Under the pieces are notes generated by a model. That model was given only the letters and a program-made list of their open reading frames with translations, did no database searches and was not told the origin of the DNA. A stretch of 64,000 bases of DNA from an uncultured Candidatus Saccharibacteria bacterium (lineage in GTDB: Bacteria > Patescibacteriota > Doudnabacteria > UBA920), in NCBI GenBank assembly GCA_964434195.1, contig CAYSUI010000004.1, forward strand, positions 4,245 to 68,244, given 5' to 3'. A program made the position numbers and the translations under genes. How positions within the stretch are numbered: the first letter of the stretch is position 1; every line of letters begins with the position of its first letter. This document shows positions 4,464-60,878 of the stretch, piece after piece.

Positions 4464-5393
4464 TTAATAACTAATTTGTGGTAATTTCGGAAGCAACCTC
4501 TTCGATTTAAAGAAAAACCACCCTATTACAACAAAAGTTGCCATCGGCGAAATCCATGCGGGTACGTGGAGCCCAAAAGCGTCACATAACATAACTGTAC
4601 CCAAAACAAGAATTGAATACATTGCGCCATTTTTCAAAAAAACATATTTTTTTACACGCTCAATATTTCCAATAGTAAGTTGTCTAACAACTACTGCACC
4701 CAAGCCATTTCCTAAGACAATTAAAGGTACAGAAAGCGTAAAAGCAAAAGCACCCAAAACACCGTCTATAGAAAAAGTAGAATCTATAACTTCTAAATAT
4801 AATATTTTACTGAGATCGGACATTCCCGAACCCTTCAATTGCGCTTCTTGTTTTTCCGCATTCTCTTTAAAGCCATGAGTAATAAAAAACGCGGTCGAAC
4901 CAACAACAGCTCCAAATGCCATAACCGGATTTATTTTTATGGCCGCCCAAACAAGCACGGAAAGAAAAACAGAGACCACAGCATAGAACCAAACACCTTG
5001 CGAGTGTATAAATTTTTCACCCGGTAACCCAAAGTTTTTGGGTTCTAAAAACAACCAATGAAAAAATAAAAAAACTAGAAAAGTACCACCACCTGCTAAA
5101 AGTATCGGCGCAGATTTCTCTATTGCTTCAAGAACATGCCTGTCTCCACTAAATGTTGCAGTAATTGCCTCAACAGGCCCCAACCCCGGAATAGATAACC
5201 AAACTATTAACCATGGCAAAATTCCTCTAATAACGAATACTGCGAAAAAAATTCCCCAAACCAAAAACCATTTTCGTGCCTTAGCCCCCATTCCACTCAG
5301 CACCTCTGCGTTTATAACGGCATTGTCGACACTGCTCACAGTCTCAAACAATGCTAAACCTAACACAGTTAAAGCACCAGATAAAAACCCCAT
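4464..5393 (-). CDS. integral membrane protein, DUF475 / TerC-like family
   Basis: 309 aa, multi-pass. The N-terminal ETVSSVDNAVINAEVL motif is characteristic of the DUF475/TerC group. Confidence 0.5.
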   Translation of the reverse strand: MGFLSGALTVLGLALFETVSSVDNAVINAEVLSGMGAKARKWFLVWGIFFAVFVIRGILPWLIVWLSIPGLGPVEAITATFSGDRHVLEAIEKSAPILLAGGGTFLVFLFFHWLFLEPKNFGLPGEKFIHSQGVWFYAVVSVFLSVLVWAAIKINPVMAFGAVVGSTAFFITHGFKENAEKQEAQLKGSGMSDLSKILYLEVIDSTFSIDGVLGAFAFTLSVPLIVLGNGLGAVVVRQLTIGNIERVKKYVFLKNGAMYSILVLGTVMLCDAFGLHVPAWISPMATFVVIGWFFFKSKRLLPKLPQISY

Positions 5394-5402
5394 AAATTTT
5401 TA

Positions 5403-5774
5403 TTAAGCAGTTTTCTTTACAGAAAGTAGTTTAACGAAGTCACCTTTAAATTCACTCAAATTTTTATGAACTTGAATACAATCGTTTAAGCTCAAAGGTT
5501 CTAGCTTGCTAAATTTTGCCGAATCTTGAGAAGTTAAATCTGTAATCATTCCAACACTAAAGACTTCAGGTCCATTTATATCTATGTTAAACATAACCGA
5601 ACTAGTACATTTCTGACAGTCTGAATGAATTAGAATTTGAGCACTGTTCTCTGATTCTGTTTGCTTAGATTCAATAATCTTAGTGTTATCCAAGTTATAT
5701 TTAAATCCACAAACCGGGCACCTGAGTACCCCACCCAACCAGACCAGTACCTTCTTAAAATTCATAGGTTTCAT
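5403..5774 (-). CDS. small zinc-ribbon protein (CPxCG...CxxC), hypothetical
   Basis: The track ORF 5403..5948 starts inside the GC-rich structured element. Its first 58 codons translate that element (MLPRPSTRASGCVGGPNENSPLF...). A start at the internal Met (MKPMNFKK, 5774) is far more plausible. The product has two CxxC pairs. Confidence 0.4.
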   Translation of the reverse strand: MKPMNFKKVLVWLGGVLRCPVCGFKYNLDNTKIIESKQTESENSAQILIHSDCQKCTSSVMFNIDINGPEVFSVGMITDLTSQDSAKFSKLEPLSLNDCIQVHKNLSEFKGDFVKLLSVKKTA

Positions 5775-5875
5775 ATTCTTCACAATAAATAAATTTAAAA
5801 AGTAATTTCCTAAACTATACCACTTAAACCCCCACAACACAAACACGAACTTGTACCCAAAATCAATCGAAGGAT

Positions 5876-6034
5876 GGGGGAAAAGGGGTGAATTTTCATT
5901 AGGTCCTCCTACGCACCCGGATGCACGGGTGCTGGGTCGAGGGAGCATCCCTTTCTCTCTGGACGGGCTCAGCCCGATCCTGAGAGAAAGGGATTCGCTT
6001 CTCGGATTTCATTCAAACTCACCCCTTTTCCCCC
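5876..6034. ncRNA. candidate structured RNA element (unclassified), GC-rich, closed by a perfect 16-bp stem
   Basis: GGGGGAAAAGGGGUGA (5876-5891) pairs perfectly with UCACCCCUUUUCCCCC (6019-6034). Inside are GCACCCG-gaugca-CGGGUGC, a ~13-bp stem CCCUUUCUCUCUGG/CCUGAGAGAAAGGG enclosing GGGCU-ca-GCCC, and GGAUGC/GCAUCC. GC content is far above the surroundings. The strand is undetermined. Confidence 0.4.
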
Positions 6035-6090
6035 GTCCCAAAGTTCTGTTTAAAAATAATTAAAATGATTTTCAAAAGACATCGGAACAG

Positions 6091-6272
6091 CTCGATTTCA
6101 GATTTTGAGATGAGATTTTAAGAAACGTTCAGTCAGAGTTCGATTTCAGATTTTGAGTGGATTTTTTTCGATTTTCGAGAAGTGAGCGGAGGCGTCCGCG
6201 GGGGGACGGTGTAGCGAGCCTCGGAGAAAATCGGAAAAAAACCGCCAAAATATGGAATCCCGTCAAAACAAG
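6091..6272. repeat. dispersed intergenic repeat, copy A (full length; contains an internal tandem 18-mer)
   Basis: TCGATTTCAGATTTTGAG occurs twice (6092-6109 and 6140-6157), then TCGATTTTCGAG, a GCGTCCG..GGGACGG hairpin, AAAATCGG and CGCCAAAATATGGAATCCCGTCAAAACA. It is homologous to copies at 20974, 42816, 47884, 55145 and 60703. Confidence 0.7.
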
Positions 6273-6281
6273 TATACCAAT

Positions 6282-7382
6282 CTAGAAGCGAAGCGACCTA
6301 GACTGCATGACAACATTCTGTACAATGCCGAGGCAAATATACGAAACCAATAAGGCACTCCCACCATAACTCATAAAAGGGAGAGGGATTCCTGTAACTG
6401 GCATGATCCCCATGTTCATCCCTATATTTATTATTATCTGCACAAAAAATACACACAGTACTCCCATTGTTAAATATCTGCCCAAATAATCTTTAGATTT
6501 CTGCATAATAGTATAGAGCCTATATATCATAAATATATAAAACCCTAAGAGCACACTTGAGCCAAAATATCCTATTTCTTCCGCAGCTGATGCAAAAACA
6601 AAATCCGTTTGTCTTTCCGGTAAAAATTTCAACTGACTCTGAAGACCCTTACCTAACCCCCTCCCAAATAGCTGACCACTACCCACAGCAATTGTCGCTT
6701 GCTTAACATTGTAACCTTTACCTTTGGGGTCTAAATCTGGATTTAGAAAAACCTCAACTCGCAGTCTTTGGTAATCATGCAATAAAAACTCCCACGAAAA
6801 TCCAGATATAATCAAAAACGAAACTAACAAAGCGATAATATATTTTTTACTTATAGGTGATAATAAAATCATCCCTCCCCACACACTAGCTAATACCAAA
6901 GAAGATCCCAAATCAGGCTCCAATAGTACCAACACAAAAGGTATTGCCGTCATGACAAGTGTCATTAGCATATGCTTCCAAGAATTCACCAAAGCCTGTC
7001 TTAGACCAAACCATCTTGCCAAAACAATAACTAAGATTACTTTGGCAAATTCTGCCGGTTGCAATTGGAAAAATCCGAAATCTATCCACCTAGAACTCCC
7101 TCTAATATCCCTAGCAAAAAACAAGACATAAATTAAGACAATAATAATTACCGGATACGCTATTCGGTTCATTTTGGAAAGACTATGGTAGTTATAAAAT
7201 GCGAACACAAAAAACAAAATTAACCCTACCGATGCAAATAATAACTGTTTCCAAAAAATCGTCATTGACGGATTAGACAACGAAGTCGCATACAAAACTG
7301 CTAGCCCCAATGCTTGGACAAGCAACATCACCACAAACAGTGGCACGTCAAAATAAGTTAAATTACGAAAAAAGCTAAGCAT
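6282..7382 (-). CDS. SEDS-family peptidoglycan glycosyltransferase (RodA/FtsW)
   Basis: 366 aa, 10 TM. Motifs RWIDFGFFQLQPAEFAKV and ATIAVGSGQLFGRGLGKG...FLPERQTDFVFA are typical of FtsW/RodA/SpoVE. Confidence 0.8.
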   Translation of the reverse strand: MLSFFRNLTYFDVPLFVVMLLVQALGLAVLYATSLSNPSMTIFWKQLLFASVGLILFFVFAFYNYHSLSKMNRIAYPVIIIVLIYVLFFARDIRGSSRWIDFGFFQLQPAEFAKVILVIVLARWFGLRQALVNSWKHMLMTLVMTAIPFVLVLLEPDLGSSLVLASVWGGMILLSPISKKYIIALLVSFLIISGFSWEFLLHDYQRLRVEVFLNPDLDPKGKGYNVKQATIAVGSGQLFGRGLGKGLQSQLKFLPERQTDFVFASAAEEIGYFGSSVLLGFYIFMIYRLYTIMQKSKDYLGRYLTMGVLCVFFVQIIINIGMNMGIMPVTGIPLPFMSYGGSALLVSYICLGIVQNVVMQSRSLRF

Positions 7383-8246: not shown

Positions 8247-11200
8247 ATGAATTTCACTCATTTACATTGCCACACCCACTACTCGTTATTAGATGGCCTA
8301 AGCAAACCTGAACCCTTAGTAGAAAAAGCAAAAAACCTTGGAATGACTGCTCTTAGCATAACTGACCACGGAGTGCTTTATGGTGCTGTCGAATTTTACA
8401 ACCTATGTCATGATGCGGGCATAAAACCCATAATAGGAATGGAAAGTTATGTAGCCCCACGAACCCGTTTCGATAAAGAAGGCAAAATCGATAGCGATTA
8501 TTACCATCTAACCCTACTCGCAAAAAATTACACAGGTTATCAAAACCTTCTTATGTTAGCCAGCCTTTCTCACACCGAAGGTTTTTACTATAAACCCAGA
8601 GTAGACAAGGAGCTACTTCAAAAATACCACGAGGGTATTATTGCTCTATCTGGTTGCCCAAGAGGAGAAATCGGTAGGAAATTACAGACAAGCACGAAAG
8701 AAGGTGAGAAAGCCTTAGAAGAATATTTAAACATTTTTGGTAAAGAAAATTTCTATATCGAACTCCAGCGCACCAGTGCAAACCCTGATCCAGAGTTAGC
8801 AAAAATATTCGACTCAATGGCCGAGTTAGCCAAAAGAAAAAATATACCCGTAGTCGCCACTCAAGACTCTCACTATATAGACAAAGAGGACGCCGAAGCT
8901 CAAGACATTATGGTCTGTATAGGAATTGGAAAAACAGTAAACGATCCAAACAGATTGGACATGCGTCAGCATGACCTATCGCTCAGGTCCCCGCAGGAAA
9001 TGATAAATCTTTTTAAAGATATTCCCGAAGCAATCGAAAATACTAACAAGATTGCTGAAATGTGCAATCTCGAAATTCCAATTAACCAAAGATACTTCCC
9101 TAAGGTAAAACTTCCAGAAGGAAAAAGCGCAGAGGAACACCTCACGGATACAGTTCACGAAAAATCTTACGCTAAATACGGAAAAGACGGAAGCATTCCT
9201 GAAGAAATACTCACTCGAATAGACTATGAGCTAGATATTATTTGCAAAAAAGGATTCGCACCGTACTTTCTAATGGTCGCAGATATTGTTCATGGCTCAC
9301 ACGAAATAGGTGCAATTACAAACACAAGGGGATCTGCTGCTGGTAGCATTGTTGGTTATATACTCGAAATAACCAATGTAGACCCACTCTACTACGAACT
9401 TCCTTTCGAACGCTTTTTAACTATGCACCGACCCACCCCACCCGATATTGACCTCGATATTTCTGACGTAAAAAGAGACGATGCAATTCGCTACATCACA
9501 GAAAGCTATGGTAAAGACAAGGTTGCTCAAATTATTACATTTGGAACAATGATGGCAAGAGCAGCAGTAAGAGACGTAGGTCGAGCACTAGGTGTCGCAT
9601 ACGGAAAATGCGACCGCATTGCCAAAATGATCCCAATCGGTAAACAAGGTTTCCATATGACCTTGGACAAAGCTATCGAAATGTCAGCCGAGCTAAAAGA
9701 AGTCTATAAAAGAGATCCCGAAACTACAAAAATAATCGACATCGCAAGGCGTTTAGAAGGCTGTTGTAGACACGCCTCTATTCACGCTGCTGGAATTATC
9801 ATTACTCCGGTTCCTCTTACCGACATTGTTCCTTTGCAAAAAGAACCTGACGGAGAAAGAATGATTACCCAATACGATATGTATTCACTCGATGTGAACG
9901 CTAAGGGTAACGCTATCGGTGCAATCAAGATGGATTTGCTCGGAATTAGAAACTTAAGCATTCTAGAGCTTGCGGTTAATTTAGTAGAAAAAAGACACGG
10001 GAAAAAAATAGATATCTATAATCTCCCCCACCCAGATAAAGCTACTTTTGAATTACTTTCAAAAGGTTTGACCTTTGGTGTCTTTCAACTTGGGTCAGGT
10101 GGTATGACTCGCTACCTAAAAGAGCTTAGACCTACAAATATTTTCGACCTCTCAGCAATGATCGCCCTTTATCGTCCTGGCCCCCTCCAATTCATTCCTC
10201 AATTCATAGCAAGAAAACATGACCCAAAACTTATAACTTACCTAGACCCTTCTTTGGAAAAAATACTTCAAAGAACTTATGGAATTTTAGTTTATCAAGA
10301 TGACCTTTTAACCATCGCCCACGACCTAGCTGGTTACTCCTGGGAAGAAGTAGATAAATTTAGAAAAGCTGTAGGAAAAAAAGACGTGGAGGTTATGGCA
10401 AAAGAGAGAGGTAAATTTATAGATGGTTGCGTAAAAACTGTAGGGTGGAGTAAAAATAAAGCCGAAGAAGTATGGGCATGGATAGAACCCTTTGCCGCAT
10501 ATGGTTTCAATAAAAGCCATTCTGCAAGCTACGCTGTTGTTTCTTATCAGACTGCTTACATGAAAGCTAACTTTCCTGTTGAATTTATGGCTTCTGTTAT
10601 GACCTGTGAAAGCGGCAATGAAGATAAAATTTATGCCGCAGTAGAAGAATGTAAGAATTTAAAAATTACAGTACTCCCACCAGACGTAAATGAATCCTTC
10701 GGAGATTTTACAGTAGTAGATGAACACACTATTCGTTTTGGTCTAAATGCTATAAAAAACTTAGGTAGTGATGTCGTAGAACAAATTATTAAACTAAGAT
10801 CAGAAACAAAAGAAAAAGTCCCATTTAAAACTCTCGAAGATTTTCTAATTAAATGCCATACCAAGAACTTAAATAAAAAATCATACGAAGCCTTGGTAAA
10901 AGGAGGTGCATTAGATAGATTTGGCGAGAGAGGAAACCTAATTTTCAACACAGAGAGAGTTCTAGATTTTCTAAGAGAGCATTTTAAAATTAAAACAGAT
11001 GGACAAAATTCTTTATTTGGTAAATCTTTTCAAATTGGAAAGCTCAAACTAGAACCCTCCGGAGAAATATCCGAGCAAGAAAAACTTACCTGGGAGAAAG
11101 AACACCTGGGAATGTACGTAACTTCACATCCCCTAAAAAATTACAAAAAAGTTTTGAGTAATTTCGGTTCCATAAACGCACTTCAGGACGTACCCCTCGG

Positions 11201-11711: not shown

Positions 11712-11721
11712 GAAGCAAACA

Positions 11722-11750
11722 TTGACATAATTCAAAAAAAAGTGTAATAT
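11722..11750 (+). promoter_or_regulatory. near-consensus sigma70 promoter (TTGACA-17-TAATAT, TG-extended)
   Basis: TTGACA at 11722-11727, a 17-nt spacer, and gTGtAATAT at 11742-11750. A TATAAT also occurs at 11748-11753. Confidence 0.55.
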
Positions 11751-11757
11751 AATGGGG

Positions 11758-12320
11758 CTAGAAAGGCATAACCTCTTCTGTGAATTCACTGAATAGGTTT
11801 CCCAATAGCCCTGTAATGCACATTTTAAAATTAGGTTTTCAAGTGGTTTCCTAGTAGTAAGAAATACTTTCTTTTTTATTGCCAGGAAACCACTTGCCGG
11901 AAAAGCTTCGGCGAGCGCAACCTGCACGCAAGTGCAGGCATCCCGGTTGCACAACCGACCCAAAGACAGGTTTCCTTGCTATGGTAGAGAAAAAGTTTAC
12001 ACCAGAGCAAGTCTTTGGGTAAGTAACTATATCCGTCAGAACATGCTAACTAAGTAATGCGCGTTCTGGCACCTCGGAGTCTGCTGCCCCCCCCTTATTT
12101 TTACTCGGCAAGCAAGACTCCTAGTCGAGGAGCGGTAGCAGCAAGAACCCAATGCCCTTGGTTCAACTACCGCTCCTCTGGGGCAAAAAGCAATTCGGCG
12201 TCTATTGAGAAGGGCTAATTTGCTTGCCCCAAGCAGCCGCTCAATTAGACGTAGTCAAAAACCTAATGTGCTCACAGGAAAAGCCGACTCGAAATATATC
12301 GGGCCGGCTTTTTCTCTTGT
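11758..12320 (+). ncRNA. unclassified ~560-nt highly structured GC-rich RNA with its own promoter and terminator (candidate large ncRNA or thrS leader)
   Basis: No ORF. Stems:
- 14-bp stem, 11840-11854 with 11882-11896.
- GCUUCGGC (UUCG tetraloop), 11905-11912.
- CUGCAC-GCAA-GUGCAG (GNRA), 11923-11938.
- GGUUG-ca-CAACC, 11945-11956.
- GGAGUCU/AGACUCC.
- 12-bp GAGGAGCGGUAG/CUACCGCUCCUC, 12127-12138 with 12167-12178.
- GCGUCUAUUGAG/CUCAAUUAGACGU.
It ends in the terminator at 12283-12320. Confidence 0.45.
12283..12320 (+). terminator. intrinsic terminator closing the structured RNA upstream of thrS
   Basis: GCCGACUCG-aaauauau-CGGGCCGGC stem (8 of 9 bp) followed by UUUUUCUCUUGU. Confidence 0.6.
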
Positions 12321-12349
12321 TTGACTTCCCTAAGCCAAACTCTTAATAT
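12321..12349 (+). promoter_or_regulatory. candidate sigma70 promoter for thrS (TTGACT-17-TAATAT)
   Basis: TTGACT at 12321-12326, a 17-nt spacer, and TAATAT at 12344-12349. It starts immediately after the terminator U-tract. Confidence 0.4.
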
Positions 12350-12524
12350 TCCAATATATTTATCACTAAGACCCGACTACCACTCGGCGAGCGATTACAA
12401 ATTTAATAAAATAGCTAACTGGGTTGGAACCGTCTGGTCAACAACTAGACCCCAGAATTTATTTACCATACTTTTGGTAATTAAATTCTGGGTTTTATTT
12501 TTTATTAACATCTAAAATTAGACT

Positions 12525-20912: not shown

Positions 20913-20973
20913 CTCCCCGATAATAAGCCATCCCCCCATTTTTTGCAACACTTATCTCTCCTGAAAAAAGTAC

Positions 20974-21110
20974 GCATTGCAGATTTTGGTTCAGATTGCA
21001 CGATCTTTTTCGATTTTTTTACGCAAGCGTCCGTGACGGGACGATGGAGTAAAAAAATCCAAAAAATCGTGCGAGCTGGAGCAAAATATGCGATGCCATA
21101 GCCACAAAAC
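20974..21110. repeat. dispersed intergenic repeat, copy B
   Basis: GCATTGCAGATTTTGGTTCAGATTGCAC...TTCGATTTTTTTACGCAAGCGTCCGTGACGGGACG...AAAAAATCGTGCGAGCTGGAGCAAAATATGCGATGCCATAGCCACAAAACA. Aligns with copy A along its whole length. Confidence 0.7.
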
Positions 21111-21203: not shown

Positions 21204-22625
21204 TTATGAGATCAGGTCACGACCCCCTTCAGCCGTGCCCAGATCGCGAAAGAAATAACCAAGGATTGGACTCCTCGCGCAGTATTCCCTCACACTGGCC
21301 CAAATCCTGCTTGTTGCTGGCTCATCTCTGGTAATCCGGTAAGCATCCTCAGTTTTCAGGTACGCCTTTCTGTCACGCACCCACGAACGCCATAGAGCTA
21401 AATCGTTCTGGACTTGTGGATCACTCTCACGAGTAGCGGTATGATATGCGATCGCAGCTTCCAGGAAGTCTGCTTCGGTGTAGTCAAGATAGGCATCGTT
21501 TACTGCAAACCAGGCCCTAGGATAAGGATCGACATCGCTTGCTTCCCGCATAACATATTCACCCGCCGTATGATCACTCACAATTCCATTCTCCTTAAGG
21601 TAATCATGAATTCGATCATTAATCTTCAAAGGATTTGTATCAGGGGTTAGCCCATCTGAGGTTTGGGCCTCAGGTTTCTCGATTCTGTCTTTGGACTTGA
21701 TCTCGTCCGAAATGAACTTGTAGAAGCAACTTTTGGGGTTGCTCAGGAATTCAGGATTAGTTTCGACCCGGTTCTTGCGGGCAATCAGGAGCATCATCTC
21801 ACGAGCCATTTTAGCAAACACGAGATTTGCAGTCTTTAAAGTCTCGAAGTCGCTTTCAAGCGAGCCACTCGCAACCAGAGTCTGGTTGCCGTCAAAGGAT
21901 TCTTTCCAGGCGCGAAATGTAACGCGCACCGGTGTAAACTGCACAGGCATCTTCTTCTCGGGTGCAAAGCCGGTAGCCTTGCGGAACTCGCTCATAACTT
22001 TCTTAGCAGTAGGCAGGTCCTTTTTACGACCGAAACGCTTGGGCTTCTCAGGGAAACCAAGGTACAACAGAAGGTCGTAGGGACGCATCATCGCCAATTC
22101 CTCGTCCGCCTCACCTACACTGAAAACCTCAGGGTATTCGGTTTCCAACCAAGAAATATATTCAGGATTGGACTGCGATCTGGTAAGCGAGAACTCGATA
22201 CCTGTTTCCAGGTCGAACTCCACGAAAGTCGTTTCCGTACTCGGCGCATAAGGCGTCTTATACTGACGACCACTCGGTGTAATACCGGGTTTCGAATTCG
22301 GTGAATAAACTTTCCCGCGCTTACTTTGCGCGACATTCACCAAATGGTTCGCGAGCATCTTATTGTTCCGAAACCCTTCGTCGTAAATGAAGTAAAACGA
22401 ATCATGCTCCAAATCGAACTCTTTCTGTGTCCGGTTAGCCGAATTAATAAGCGCTGGCCCGAATTTTCGGACCAAAGAATAACTGGCGACAGACAGACCA
22501 CCAATAACTACCGAAGCAGGTAAAGCTACCTGCGGCCAAGGCAAACTCTTGAAAGTTTCCCAAGCATCAACGACCTGTTTCGTAGCAGTGGGATCAGCCA
22601 GAAGAAATAATTCTTTGCTCAACAT
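21204..22625 (-). CDS. hypothetical protein with N-terminal TM helix, compositionally atypical (GC-rich) orphan
   Basis: 473-aa ORF in a ~1.4-kb segment of clearly higher G+C. Many overlapping spurious ORFs on other frames. Flanked by repeat copy B and a hairpin-containing spacer. No family recognised. Confidence 0.5.
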   Translation of the reverse strand: MLSKELFLLADPTATKQVVDAWETFKSLPWPQVALPASVVIGGLSVASYSLVRKFGPALINSANRTQKEFDLEHDSFYFIYDEGFRNNKMLANHLVNVAQSKRGKVYSPNSKPGITPSGRQYKTPYAPSTETTFVEFDLETGIEFSLTRSQSNPEYISWLETEYPEVFSVGEADEELAMMRPYDLLLYLGFPEKPKRFGRKKDLPTAKKVMSEFRKATGFAPEKKMPVQFTPVRVTFRAWKESFDGNQTLVASGSLESDFETLKTANLVFAKMAREMMLLIARKNRVETNPEFLSNPKSCFYKFISDEIKSKDRIEKPEAQTSDGLTPDTNPLKINDRIHDYLKENGIVSDHTAGEYVMREASDVDPYPRAWFAVNDAYLDYTEADFLEAAIAYHTATRESDPQVQNDLALWRSWVRDRKAYLKTEDAYRITRDEPATSRIWASVREYCARSPILGYFFRDLGTAEGGRDLIS

Positions 22626-42796: not shown

Positions 42797-42815
42797 TTAA
42801 TCTCTTACTATTATA

Positions 42816-42880
42816 GCTCGATTGCAAATTTTGATTGCAGATTAGTCGATTTTCGAGCACTTCGACGGAAGGACTCCCTG
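42816..42880. repeat. dispersed intergenic repeat, partial copy E (left module only)
   Basis: GCTCGATTGCAAATTTTGATTGCAGATTAGTCGATTTTCGAGCAC is near-identical to the left module of copy C (GCTCGATTCCAAATTTTAAGAGCAGTTTCACCGATTTTCGAGTAC). Confidence 0.6.
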
Positions 42881-46168: not shown

Positions 46169-46288
46169 AAAAAAATTATAAATATTTCATTTATTTTAAC
46201 AGATAATCCACAGTATTGACAAAAATAAAAAAATTCAGTGAAATAAAAAATCTTTTTGTCAAACCCATAACCCTAACAGGAGGTTAGA

Positions 46289-47083
46289 ATGCCAACTATT
46301 GTATTCATTGCAATGCTAATTGCTTTGGTAATTTTGCATGAGCTCGAACATGCAAAAGAAATGCGTAAAAGGGGAGTGGAAATTCAAAGCGCAGGCTTTG
46401 AAATACCCATAATCACACTTTTCACAATACATAAACCCTGGTTCTTCTCGGGAATCCCTTTCAAATTTAGCCCTTTTCCCTACCTTGCGTACGTCTTACC
46501 CAGTGAAAAGGGAATCGAGACAATTAAAAAACTCCCCTACCGTGATATGGCAATGATCTACGGCGCAGGCCCATGGGGAAGTTTTTTCTACCCATTACCG
46601 ATCCTAATGGTTATTTCCATTTTCCAGCAAGAATTTATGATGGCGCTATTATATGCTGCGCTAATACCCGCTCTCTGGTTCGGCAAAAACATATTTTGCA
46701 AATACGGCGTACTGATAATAGGATCAATCTTCACCGTTCTATTTGCGGTGTATATCTACAAAACCGGTTTAAGCAATCTAGTTTCTGCTGACGCAGGCCA
46801 CAGTACGCCTGCAAACATAAACAGAGCAACGGAAAAAATGACAGTGATAACAGCCATTGCAGGTGCATGCGATGCATCATTTTGTCTGGCTGCACTTAAC
46901 TGCATCCTATCAATACCACTCGACGGTGGGAGAGTTTTCAAGGCCTTCTTACATGCAATAAATAGCCCTAAATGGATAACGGTAACACTAAGCACTATCC
47001 CCGCTTTTCTGATTATTTCATTTTTATTAATGAACATAGGCTCAGACCTAATTGGAACAATTAAATGGTTTATGAGCCGCTAA
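46289..47083 (+). CDS. membrane metalloprotease, peptidase M50-like (HExxH ... LDGG)
   Basis: HELEHA at the N-terminus and PLDGGRV near the C-terminus. Multi-pass. The 3' half is notably more GC-rich than the 5' half. Confidence 0.55.
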   Translation: MPTIVFIAMLIALVILHELEHAKEMRKRGVEIQSAGFEIPIITLFTIHKPWFFSGIPFKFSPFPYLAYVLPSEKGIETIKKLPYRDMAMIYGAGPWGSFFYPLPILMVISIFQQEFMMALLYAALIPALWFGKNIFCKYGVLIIGSIFTVLFAVYIYKTGLSNLVSADAGHSTPANINRATEKMTVITAIAGACDASFCLAALNCILSIPLDGGRVFKAFLHAINSPKWITVTLSTIPAFLIISFLLMNIGSDLIGTIKWFMSR

Positions 47084-47086
47084 ACC

Positions 47087-47116
47087 AAACGTGTCTTATC
47101 AACACGTTTTTTTATT
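47087..47116 (+). terminator. intrinsic terminator of the M50-like gene
   Basis: AAACGUGU-cuuauca-ACACGUUU followed by U7. Confidence 0.55.
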
Positions 47117-47304
47117 TCAAAGCACAATTGACACGAAAAGCGGTAATAAAGTAAATCCTAAAACTAAGCGGGTGAAGCCATCACAAAATAACCGGAAGAG
47201 AAAAATTCGGATTAATCTCATAGCGAGCACAAAAAATGAATGCCAATTAGGTCTTACAAGTAGCAAGCTACCCGGAAAACTCGGTCAACACCTTTCAGTA
47301 AACA

Positions 47305-47350
47305 AATTCAATAAAACGCACCACTCGAAAGTGATGCGTCTTCATTTTCT
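47305..47350. terminator. bidirectional hairpin at the greA 3' end
   Basis: ACGCACCACU-cgaa-AGUGAUGCGU (9 of 10 bp) with U-rich tracts on both sides. Confidence 0.45.
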
Positions 47351-47810
47351 AAGCTATTTCTACTATCTCATACTCCATAGGACCAGCTGGTGCTTGAACT
47401 GTAAATTTATCTCCGAGTTTTTTCCCTAAAAGAGACTTCCCTACCAAAGACTCATTAGAAATTTTACCTTCTCCAGGATTAGCTTCATTACTTCCAACGA
47501 TACTATAAGTTCTTTTTTGATCGTTTACCTTTACAGTTACGGTTGAACCTATCGTTACGGTATTGTGCTGAGTAGCAGCTGTAATTATTTCAGCATTCTT
47601 AATCATCTCCTCTATCTCTTGAATCCTACCTTCTATAAAAGATTGCTCTTCTCTCGCTTGTGCATAATCAGCATTTTCAGACAAATCACCATGAGCCGCT
47701 GCCTCTCTAATTCTTTCTATGACTTCTTTACGTTTCTCATTTATAAGAAACTTCAACTCTTCATTTAATTTTGCCAGACCCTCATGGGTCAATAAATACT
47801 TTTTGCTCAT
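47349..47810 (-). CDS. greA: transcription elongation factor GreA
   Basis: N-terminal coiled coil with the conserved acidic tip (GDLSENADY) and the FKBP-like C-terminus. Confidence 0.85.
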   Translation of the reverse strand: MSKKYLLTHEGLAKLNEELKFLINEKRKEVIERIREAAAHGDLSENADYAQAREEQSFIEGRIQEIEEMIKNAEIITAATQHNTVTIGSTVTVKVNDQKRTYSIVGSNEANPGEGKISNESLVGKSLLGKKLGDKFTVQAPAGPMEYEIVEIA

Positions 47811-47883
47811 TTATAATATTGAAAAATAATGCCCTAACTATACCAAAAACCCTTGTCCAAGTCAATGTTCTTTTCTTAATTTG

Positions 47884-48012
47884 GCTCGATTCCAAATTTT
47901 AAGAGCAGTTTCACCGATTTTCGAGTACGACCCTGGGGTGTCTATGATTAGGACCATTAAGGGACGCGCAAAGAAAATCGCTGAAAATGCGCCAAAATAT
48001 TCAACCCCTCAC
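47884..48012. repeat. dispersed intergenic repeat, copy C
   Basis: GCTCGATTCCAAATTTTAAGAGCAGTTTCACCGATTTTCGAGTACGACCCTGGGG...GGGACGCGCAAAGAAAATCGCTGAAAATGCGCCAAAATATTCAACCCCTCAC. Confidence 0.65.
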
Positions 48013-48026
48013 TTTACAAATTAATC

Positions 48027-55144: not shown

Positions 55145-55235
55145 GCAGTTATTTTATAGCTTTTCCGAATCTGGCTCTGCCATGTTCGGAAAAAACGACG
55201 GAAAGGAGAAGCCATGAAGAGGAAAACCGTGTTTT
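55145..55235. repeat. dispersed intergenic repeat, degenerate partial copy F
   Basis: TTTTGCAG...CCATGTTCGGAAAAAACGACGGAAAGGAG shares the CGGAAAAAACG(G/A)CG block with copy D and the TTTTGCA end with copies B and D. Confidence 0.35.
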
Positions 55236-56935: not shown

Positions 56936-56939
56936 TATT

Positions 56940-57135
56940 ATCTTTTTAAATTTTCAAATTCTAGCGAGCGAAGCAATGCTAGTTCGTAATCAAAAGCAAC
57001 TCGTTGTTTTTGAGAGGGACAACATGGCAGTCGTAGTGGAAGGTTTATGGAGCCCCAAGCGAATAAACCTGTAACGAGGAATGCCATGATTGGCCCGAAG
57101 TGACAGGACCCCGTAGCATGCCGATAGGCATATGA
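56940..57135. other. GC-rich structured intergenic segment (unclassified)
   Basis: ~200 nt without an ORF. Hairpins AGGUUUAU...AUAAACCU and AUGCC-gaua-GGCAU. Much higher GC than the flanks. Confidence 0.3.
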
Positions 57136-57147
57136 CACCCAAACAAA

Positions 57148-58218
57148 CTATTCAGTAAATATCCCCGCATATACTATCTGCGGTAATTCTCTATCTACTA
57201 AAATATAGTTAATAAACCCTGAAGTAACAATACCCTGGGTCTGAAAAGATACCCCACCATCCAAAGTCTTATAAATTGTACTCCCTGCGCTTAAATAAAC
57301 TATTTTAGGGTTAGAATGAGCGAAAGCTACTGCCCTAAATTGGATATCCCCTCTTTGTATAGGAACGTTCAATTTAACCCAAGTTTTTCCACCAGTAATC
57401 GTTTTAAATACACCTTTATCCGTGGTTACATACATTTCCGCTGGATCACTGTCATTAACAGCAAACTGACTAAATATAGAAGCCCCATCTGTGGAGTTTA
57501 AATATAACCCAGAAGCATCCCCACTTTTATGAAGTATCGGTGCTGTTAATTCAGTAAAGTTTACTCCTCCGTCTGTAGAGACAAACACACCTTTAGTTCT
57601 CAAAACCACAAACATTGCTCCATTCGACCAGCTAATTCTATTAATCCTATCTTCAAAATTCCTTACCAGTACCCAATTTCTACCTCCATCAAAACTCTTT
57701 ACCAAGTTACCGGACGAAAGACCAATTGTAATTTCGCTTACATTTGAGGGATTTATCGTTACCGCACGAACAGCATTATTGGGAGCTTCCTCACTATACA
57801 TTTCTTCCCATGTCTTACCAGAATCCAAACTTCTTAAAAGCTTACCGTGATCTACCCCGAAACCTGCCGCGTATATAATTTGTTCATCTGTGGGACTAAC
57901 TGCAACGTCATACACCGCTATACGCCCAAGCACCTGCTTCCATGAACCTGCCGAATCCTCAGATTTATATAAACCACCTGTATAACTTCCTGCATATATA
58001 ACCTCGCGTTTATTATTTGCAAAAGTTAACACGGAAAAGGAATAGTCAGATAAAGTAGCCTTTTCATTACCAGAAATTACGTTTGTTGCTGACCAATCTG
58101 CCCCACCATTCGAGGTTCGGATTAATCCCGCCGGTCTCGTACTAACAAAAGGATTACACCCTGCAGCCAAAGTCGTAAGTAATCCCAAGGTTATTAAATT
58201 TTTCCAATTAAATTTCAT
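57148..58218 (-). CDS. BNR/Asp-box repeat lipoprotein (Ycf48/sortilin-like beta-propeller)
   Basis: Lipobox LAAGC. Six or more S-x-D-x-G-x-T-W-like repeats (SNGGADW, SEDSAGSW, SLDSGKTW, SFDGGRNW, STDGGVNF, TLDGGVSF). Confidence 0.6.
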   Translation of the reverse strand: MKFNWKNLITLGLLTTLAAGCNPFVSTRPAGLIRTSNGGADWSATNVISGNEKATLSDYSFSVLTFANNKREVIYAGSYTGGLYKSEDSAGSWKQVLGRIAVYDVAVSPTDEQIIYAAGFGVDHGKLLRSLDSGKTWEEMYSEEAPNNAVRAVTINPSNVSEITIGLSSGNLVKSFDGGRNWVLVRNFEDRINRISWSNGAMFVVLRTKGVFVSTDGGVNFTELTAPILHKSGDASGLYLNSTDGASIFSQFAVNDSDPAEMYVTTDKGVFKTITGGKTWVKLNVPIQRGDIQFRAVAFAHSNPKIVYLSAGSTIYKTLDGGVSFQTQGIVTSGFINYILVDRELPQIVYAGIFTE

Positions 58219-60652: not shown

Positions 60653-60702
60653 ACATGAATTCCAAACGTCATGCGCCAACGAATTACATATTTTGTATGT
60701 AG

Positions 60703-60878
60703 TTTCGTCGATTTTTGAGTACGGCCCTGAAGCGACCGTGATTGGGAAAAAGCGAAGTATTTATGAAAGGATCCGGCATGCCGGTCCTGGAATAAAGACT
60801 ATTCCCTACGGTGAAAGGGCGTACGGAAAAAACGGCGAAAATACACAAAATATGCGATCCCGTCGCTTTTGCAAAAAC
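60703..60878. repeat. dispersed intergenic repeat, copy D (full length, with a palindromic CCGGCATGCCGG insertion)
   Basis: TCGATTTTTGAGTACGGCCCTG...CGGAAAAAACGGCGAAAATACACAAAATATGCGATCCCGTCGCTTTTGCAAAAAC. Its right end runs into the RBS of gene 60892. Confidence 0.65.

Follow-up and report, generated by a model that had tools for sequence, protein, structure and literature searches.

The question raised by this locus is whether the similar sequences in several intergenic spacers of one 64-kb stretch of Candidatus Saccharibacteria DNA (the whole of which we refer to as the window) belong to a genuine repeat family and, if so, what kind of element they represent. A preliminary description had counted four full copies (A to D) and two partial ones (E and F), all intergenic and all on the plus strand. 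We evaluated this census in three ways: by counting motifs, by an nhmmer search and by a covariance model. Three motifs were searched in the window: TCGATTTTCGAG (with at most 1 mismatch) gave 4 matches vs 0.30 expected, CAAAATATGCGATCCCGTC (at most 3 mismatches) gave 3 vs 0.01 expected, and TCGATTNCARATTTTGA (at most 2 mismatches) gave 4 vs 0.16 expected, with every match on the plus strand. The nhmmer profile, for which we used A, C and a single copy taken from another genome, recovered all of A to E (D in two pieces) at E-values between 1e-47 and 1e-8. The covariance model, R1, was run on the whole window with filters off; D had been left out of model building and was nevertheless scored at 31 bits (E 7e-5), next to 142 bits for A, 123 for C and 98 for B. 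The repeat family is genuine, with A to D as full copies and E as a partial one, and their intergenic position and plus-strand orientation within the window were borne out. Copy F (55145-55235) was matched by neither nhmmer nor R1, and we rejected it as a member. Its site, between an M50 peptidase gene and proS, folds into two unrelated local hairpins, TTTTCCGAA...TTCGGAAAA and GGAAAACNNNGTTTTCC.

Copy A (6136-6266, plus strand) is a 131-nt imperfect palindrome and a full element. It is preceded by a tandem duplicate of the left terminus only (A1, 6089-6135, plus strand; AGCTCGATTTCAGATTTTGAG...), whose motif recurs in A 48 nt downstream; a repeat search aligned 6089-6119 with 6137-6167 at 84% identity, and nhmmer matched 6087-6117 with an E-value of 1.3e-3. 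Copies B (20969-21102, plus strand) and C (47882-48013, plus strand) are also full elements, the latter lying between the folD stop codon and the greA promoter. Copy D (60676-60866, plus strand), a full element of 191 nt between miaA (plus strand) and a hypothetical gene (plus strand), begins about 27 nt further to the left than had been described. It scored 55 bits over its full length with R1 under default filters, at positions 9161-9351 of the minus strand of a public contig (L018) that correspond to 60676-60866 of the window. The apex of D is about 58 nt larger and contains a GGATCCGGCATGCCGGTCC hairpin, and the palindromic insertion CCGGCATGCCGG reported for this copy is indeed present. 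Copy E (42814-42860, plus strand) consists of the left half only (GCTCGATTGCAAATTTTGA-N12-CGATTTTCGAG), without a right arm. In line with this, nhmmer matched 42807-42874 (E 6.8e-10) to profile positions 9-74 only; the composite left-arm pattern is matched exactly, the full R1 model gives 13 bits (E about 1), and no significant fold was found for this copy (z -1.35). Where C and E had been called near-identical, they are in fact about 75% identical over 60 nt.

To see how far the family extends, a composite left-arm pattern was scanned over 185,579 species-representative genomes, and matched one genome in two places: the uncultured Candidatus Saccharibacteria MAG CAYLIB01 (GCA_964384035.1). 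One of the two matches is the orthologue of A, with flanking genes that are 83-89% identical between the window and the MAG. Within 20.7 kb around yidC the MAG contains three further copies, of which L3a separates yidC from jag, L3b lies between divergent genes upstream of rpmH-rnpA, and L023c (L023 19588-19717) lies between a methylase gene and yebC. The sampling comprises 5 loci in 74 kb here and 3 in the 20.7 kb from the MAG. Sample SRR23592405 represents a third lineage (YidC 78% identical to that of the MAG, GreA 88% identical to that of the window); it yields a 1,444-nt rnpA-yidD-yidC contig of which both ends lie inside copies, at the L3b and L3a positions. Copies therefore exist outside the window, as expected of a repeat family, and the label "genome-specific" had to be given up, since the MAG and a third related Saccharibacteria lineage carry the family as well. 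More distant relatives (YidC 71% and 67% identical) showed no copy in the 2.5-20 kb examined, BLAST searches of phages, plasmids and E. coli gave no matches, a pattern scan of viral contigs gave none, and a metagenome pattern scan gave two chance matches only. A search for Adk homologues did not find the MAG orthologue. The family appears to be undescribed so far, and a full-text search of the literature found no report of dispersed repeats in Saccharibacteria or Patescibacteria.

Comparison of these copies revealed at least 3 sequence subfamilies, in addition to truncated, duplicated and apex-expanded copies. A and L3a are 84% identical, which is the highest identity between copies at different loci, and B is 83% identical to L3b, a non-orthologous MAG copy of the same subfamily, while identities between subfamilies are about 50-65%. 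What unites the copies is their architecture. The left and right modules that had been described are both present, but they are not separate units: they are the complementary arms of one long hairpin, which the preliminary description had missed. Each full copy folds end to end into such a hairpin, with RNA folding energies of -36.6 to -62 kcal/mol (z -2.7 to -9.2). The copies have conserved termini, CGATTGCAGATTTTG on the left and CAAAATATGCGATCCC on the right, which form an inverted repeat and enclose variable interiors. These terminal inverted repeats (left GATTGCAGATTTTG compared with the reverse complement of right GATCGCATATTTTG; 14 nt, 2 mismatches) are kept in A, B, C, D, L3a, L3b and L023c. 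The constant parts are the left terminus (G)CTCGATTGCAGATTTTG, the right terminus GCCAAAATATGCGATCCC and a CGATTTT/AAAATCG pair, and the apex is usually a GC-rich hairpin, GCGTCCG...GGGACG. In L023c, the termini CGATTGCAGATTTT...GCCAAAATATGCGATCCC are retained around an unrelated core.

The pairing itself has been maintained while the sequence changed. In an RNAalifold alignment of seven sequences from five loci, the consensus contains 43 pairs and 88.4% of cells are paired, compared with 39-55% in slid-partner controls. Fourteen pairs have changed on both sides, and 0 of 500 shuffles reached the observed covariation score. The middle helix is almost fully rewritten between subfamilies, with compensatory changes at 6 of its 7 pairs, and in two strains that are 97.8% identical, copy C differs by one A-U to G-C double change and one A.G to U.G change. 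Such compensatory changes in a DNA palindrome need not involve selection, as hairpin-templated (template-switch) mutation can also produce them. Whether RNA or DNA parameters are used, the better-folding strand is the lagging-strand sequence (that is, the leading-strand template) in 4 of 5 copies, with RNA folds on the plus and minus strand of -53.6 (z -4.8) and -36.1 kcal/mol for A, -62 (z -9.2) and -47.8 for B, and -54.4 and -47.6 for L3a; copy C shows no strand preference. On the plus-strand consensus structure, five independent copies together have 16 G.U pairs vs 6 A.C pairs. Together with the changes between the two strains, this is no more than suggestive of a pressure to retain the plus-strand fold, considering that the structure was predicted on that very strand, that the copies share ancestry and that palindromes can correct themselves by template switching.

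These observations bear directly on the possibility that the copies are paralogous genes for structured small RNAs (or antisense or regulatory RNAs), transcribed from the plus strand, with the long hairpin as the functional RNA. The much better fold of the plus strand in A, B and L3a would fit such genes, as would the G.U excess, which runs opposite to what local mutation bias would produce, the compensatory changes (one of them between the 97.8%-identical strains) and the uniform orientation. However, the G.U count carries the bias just mentioned, C lacks the strand preference, and no copy has a sigma-70-like promoter before it or a terminator after it on the plus strand. Rfam 15 gave no match at the gathering threshold anywhere in the window, and permissive thresholds over 5300-6400 returned plant miRNA-precursor noise only (E >0.5), on which basis we rejected a known RNA family; the window also contains no tRNA or tmRNA. 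Half copies, a duplicated end and an unrelated interior within conserved termini would be odd for RNA genes, and close relatives do without C and E and have no replacement for them. Taken together, we consider small-RNA genes an unlikely explanation, though not a far-fetched one.

The surroundings of the copies are informative with respect to roles in gene expression. Intergenic DNA makes up 8% of the window, and a copy typically occupies a site that follows the end or terminator of one gene and precedes the promoter of its neighbour. Next to B, the upstream gene (21204-22625) has an intrinsic-terminator-like hairpin on the minus strand (stem read from 21152 to 21128; 9 bp with 6 GC pairs, tail TTTTCCTTTG), whose T-rich tail runs up to the right end of B. 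The T-run lies beside B and outside its homology with the closest paralogue, and does not bear out the idea that B itself supplies the U-tract of a terminator. On the other side, a promoter scan placed a sigma-70-like promoter (TTGCAA-17-TATTAT, 20920-20948, minus strand) between B and adk; as the ADK Pfam match begins only at residue 22 of the long ORF, adk itself probably starts downstream of this promoter. The greA promoter (TTGACT-17-TATAGT, 47837-47865, minus strand) was located outside C, and relatives without C have TTGACG-17-TATAAT at the corresponding position. The claim that copies lie directly upstream of a start codon consequently fails for B and C, where a sigma-70-like promoter separates element and gene. 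Likewise, the ribosome-binding site attributed to the end of D, an AGGAGG before ORF 60892, lies about 15 nt past that end.

This arrangement also makes it highly improbable that the copies act on mRNA as intercistronic hairpins on the gene (minus) strand, in other words as RNase III processing sites or 3' stabilisers, a role that has been proposed for REP, ERIC and Correia elements. Five copies do lie between co-directional genes, and the fold contains a stem of about 45 bp, which would be an RNase III substrate on either strand. Yet B follows a terminator and precedes a promoter and C precedes the greA promoter, so that both are probably outside mature mRNAs; relative to transcription, D and L023c are inverted, and L3b has divergent neighbours; the minus-strand fold is also the weaker one.

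Three explanations that would tie the copies to particular genes were rejected. They are not the leaders of paralogous genes, as the preliminary description had allowed they might be, since their neighbours are unrelated housekeeping and other genes (ftsW and the Zn-ribbon gene, adk, serS and murF, folD and greA, miaA, yidC and jag, rpmH). They do not share a cargo protein, the small proteins beside A, D and L3b being unrelated to one another. Finally, a type I toxin-antitoxin-like repeat was set aside because reading of the copy sequences revealed no conserved small ORF on either strand.

Comparison with relatives bears on how the copies arose. The folD-greA spacer measures 216 nt with C in the window, and 53-68 nt with only the greA promoter in relatives (GreA 93% and 88% identical); the serS-murF spacer measures 97 nt with E in the window, and 35 and 17 nt in relatives. 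C and E are thus found in the window species only, without replacement in close relatives. The 88% relative, which lacks both, nonetheless carries copies on both sides of rnpA-yidC, indicating that members of the family arrived at different times, and the two yidC-locus copies are common to three lineages. Judging from these comparisons, the different arrival times favour insertion over a fixed ancestral set. The copies are small (131-191 nt), contain no conserved ORF, are dispersed and vary in presence or absence, as is expected of MITEs. Around the 8 copies there is no consistent direct repeat, and filled and empty spacers are too diverged for the junctions to be placed at base level. The sequences give no sign of recent transposition, because identity between copies at different loci never exceeds 84%, and the yidC-locus copies are in place across species. 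Decayed forms also occur in the family: E is a half copy, A1 a duplicated end, and D has an expanded apex.

Copy A requires separate consideration, as it is 98% identical to its orthologous MAG copy but lies within a 900-nt block that is about 98% identical throughout. This block (5401-6300) is 96-100% identical to the MAG, whereas its flanks are 78-89% identical, with 57-73% at third codon positions. Its edges are sharp, one at the stop codon of the Zn-ribbon gene and the other about 18 nt inside the 3' end of ftsW. Since the whole block is near-identical, we did not accept the cross-species conservation of A as proof of selection. Rather, the sharp edges of the block and the contrast with its flanks suggest that it was recently imported by recombination, bringing along the Zn-ribbon gene, the hairpin upstream of that gene and copy A. 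The Zn-ribbon gene (5403-5774, minus strand) is real, encoding 123 aa, with mismatches of 2/0/7 by codon position and a protein family of 251 cluster representatives at E-values up to 0.001; the long ORF 5403-5948 probably starts at 5774, given that public gene calls yield 123 aa. Upstream of it, at 5871-6040, lies a 35-nt inverted repeat (80% complementary; GGATGGGGGAAAAGGGGTGA... / ...TCACCCCTTTTCCCCCGTCC) without an Rfam match.

The most interesting feature of the family is its strict replication-strand orientation in a CPR genome. The plus strand of the window has negative GC skew throughout and 43 of its 60 genes are on the minus strand, and all five copies are on the plus strand. At the MAG locus, read with yidC on the plus strand, positive skew extends over the whole sequence and the minus strand carries all three copies. 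Hence, in a sample of 8 loci from about 150 kb, all 8 independent loci (A to E, L3a, L3b and L023c) have the element on the C-rich (lagging) strand (two-sided p about 0.008). Transcription does not account for this. The genes on either side of D and L023c run on the strand of the element, those next to A, B, C, E and L3a run against it, and L3b has divergent neighbours; orientation therefore follows the replichore and not transcription. Replication-coupled orientation is documented for IS200/IS605 elements and is a signature of single-strand (HUH/Y1) transposition (PMC5027513).

The same regularity could mean that replication polarity is itself the function, with the copies being host cis-acting DNA elements (for example an array bound by a nucleoid, replication or segregation protein, or a hairpin that serves as a signal on one of the template strands) that are vertically inherited and occasionally duplicated but not transposed. 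The uniform replication strand at all 8 loci, whatever the gene direction, would be a natural outcome, and so would the strict conservation of GATTTT/AAAATC-type motifs across copies and the persistence in three lineages of the yidC-locus copies, one of these copies adjoining rpmH, a gene that faces dnaA in more distant relatives. Nevertheless, the copies are irregular in density and position, C and E are lacking in close relatives, decay into half copies occurs, interiors are unconserved and no protein partner was identified. Moreover, the polar signals KOPS and Chi are 8-mers, not 130-nt palindromes. We therefore think it quite unlikely that the copies are host elements of this kind.

We slightly favour the interpretation that the copies are a lineage-restricted, MITE/REPIN-like non-autonomous element, an imperfect palindrome of about 130 nt (and up to 191 nt), mobilised in trans. 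The inverted termini, the truncated and expanded copies and the empty spacers make the MITE/REP-like alternative of the preliminary description the best supported of those it offered, while its suggestion of a small-RNA or regulatory family received no positive support. According to this interpretation, an enzyme whose gene lies elsewhere in the genome would mobilise the elements in trans, or would have done so in the past. The most likely route would be a folded single-stranded DNA intermediate at the replication fork, considering that orientation tracks the replication strand and that the hairpin pairing is kept by compensatory changes; this would be the route of HUH tyrosine transposases of the IS200/IS605 and REP/RAYT types. 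Most present copies would probably be tolerated passengers at harmless sites and not host regulatory devices. Pfam searches detected no transposase or HUH gene, and no full-length IS with the family termini, in the window or in the other loci from family-carrying genomes (about 75 kb), nor was a RAYT gene present in the approximately 150 kb examined.

Its architecture and behaviour place the family in a known class, that of the small, palindromic and non-autonomous repeats of bacteria (MITE, REPIN, ERIC-like), but it fits no named repeat family. The classical MITEs and long palindromic repeats comprise Correia/NEMIS, ERIC/IRU (ERIC measuring 127 nt), RUP and the Rickettsia RPE. Our family resembles them in its size (100-200 nt), its inverted termini, its imperfect palindrome over the whole length, its intergenic location, its truncated and expanded variants and its confinement to one lineage; it differs in that no target-site duplication or parent IS with the same ends was identified, and in the lack of sequence similarity. 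To our knowledge, strict single-strand orientation has not been described for classical MITE families. Integron attC sites, with lengths of 57-141 nt, are likewise imperfect palindromes; they function in folded single-stranded form and have a set orientation relative to replication. In contrast to attC sites, however, the copies lie 5-27 kb apart among housekeeping genes (adk, greA, murF, yidC) and not in cassette arrays, the ends that were read have no GTTRRRY core, and no integrase was found.

REPINs are inverted REP doublets mobilised by RAYT tyrosine transposases (PMC3116915, PMC3337134). Like our family, they are non-coding and intergenic, combine two inverted arms in one hairpin of about 100 nt, persist vertically over long times, fall into sequence subfamilies and are thought to move via single-stranded DNA. 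The differences are that we saw no RAYT gene and no 20-40 nt REP unit with a conserved 5' tetranucleotide, that the sampled density is low (5 per 74 kb), that the copies are 50-84% identical and hence far more diverged than typical REPIN populations, and that there is no sequence similarity to E. coli genomes, which contain REPs. With IS200/IS605 elements and their miniature derivatives ("peel and paste", PMC5027513), the family shares replication-strand orientation, the lack of an evident target duplication and central DNA hairpins. Those elements, however, have separate subterminal hairpins, a specific 4-5 nt target at the left end and no terminal inverted repeats, whereas the present copies are one end-to-end palindrome with inverted termini, no constant tetranucleotide abuts their ends, and a TTAC near the right end occurs in only 4 of 8; moreover, no TnpA or TnpB gene was found, and the better-folding strand is not the lagging-strand template. 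Because IS608-type elements use the lagging-strand template, the better-folding strand is opposite to the simple IS608-type expectation.

A newer kind of system would be a long shot: a replication-polar hairpin system of a small Saccharibacteria clade, which would be either a new single-strand mobile element or a polar element retained by the host. If mobile, its active strand may be the leading-strand template or the nascent lagging strand, and its enzyme may be unrelated to RAYT or TnpA. If host-retained, the strand-specific fold may be maintained through G.T/G.U pairs against local mutation bias, and may serve as a mark of replichore polarity or give rise to head-on antisense RNAs in a genome-reduced episymbiont.

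Under the favoured interpretation of a MITE/REPIN-like element, the cognate enzyme, if found, would extend hairpin or single-strand transposition to CPR. Dispersed repeats are rare in small, gene-dense CPR genomes, and the family offers a way into the study of mobile-DNA activity and replication-strand effects in organisms that are difficult to grow, as well as a strain or species marker for the clade. It also comes with a practical warning, as several public short-read contigs end at or inside copies. We did not accept such ends (in L017, L026 and L027) as an indication of high copy number, because strain variation and palindromes also break de Bruijn assemblies.

Several other features of the window were recorded along the way. 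Two very short insertions with clean filled and empty sites were observed: one of 63 nt (5938-6000), present in the window but not in the MAG and located in the loop of the 5871-6040 inverted repeat, and one of 74 nt (L014 2519-2592, corresponding to window position 55221), present in a 97.8%-identical strain but not in the window. Both begin with GAG and contain GGGAGCA and a CGGGCTNNGCCCGAT hairpin core, and these shared features give them the look of another mobile hairpin element, of very small size. The apex of copy D (60771-60789) and the interior of L023c contain a similar GC hairpin. A region with an M50-like peptidase gene (46238-47346; the gene at 46289-47083, plus strand, followed by ORF 47091-47429) is absent from strain L014, in which greA is directly followed by aspS. 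Between a BNR-repeat gene and frr lies a 212-nt spacer (56936-57147) with 44% GC, which is high for this genome, and four public contigs (L018-L021) end at 57173, inside the BNR-repeat gene and 26 nt past the right edge of the spacer. Finally, an 813-nt gene-free gap separates dnaE from thrS (11712-12524; core 11752-12322, plus strand). A near-consensus promoter (TTGACA-17-TATAAT) lies at 11722-11750, and hairpins that resemble terminators and have T-runs lie near 12278-12320 and 12440-12503. The gap has no ORF longer than 64 aa and no Rfam match, and its 571-nt core, with a predicted folding energy of -231 kcal/mol (z-score -13), is probably a large unannotated structured RNA.
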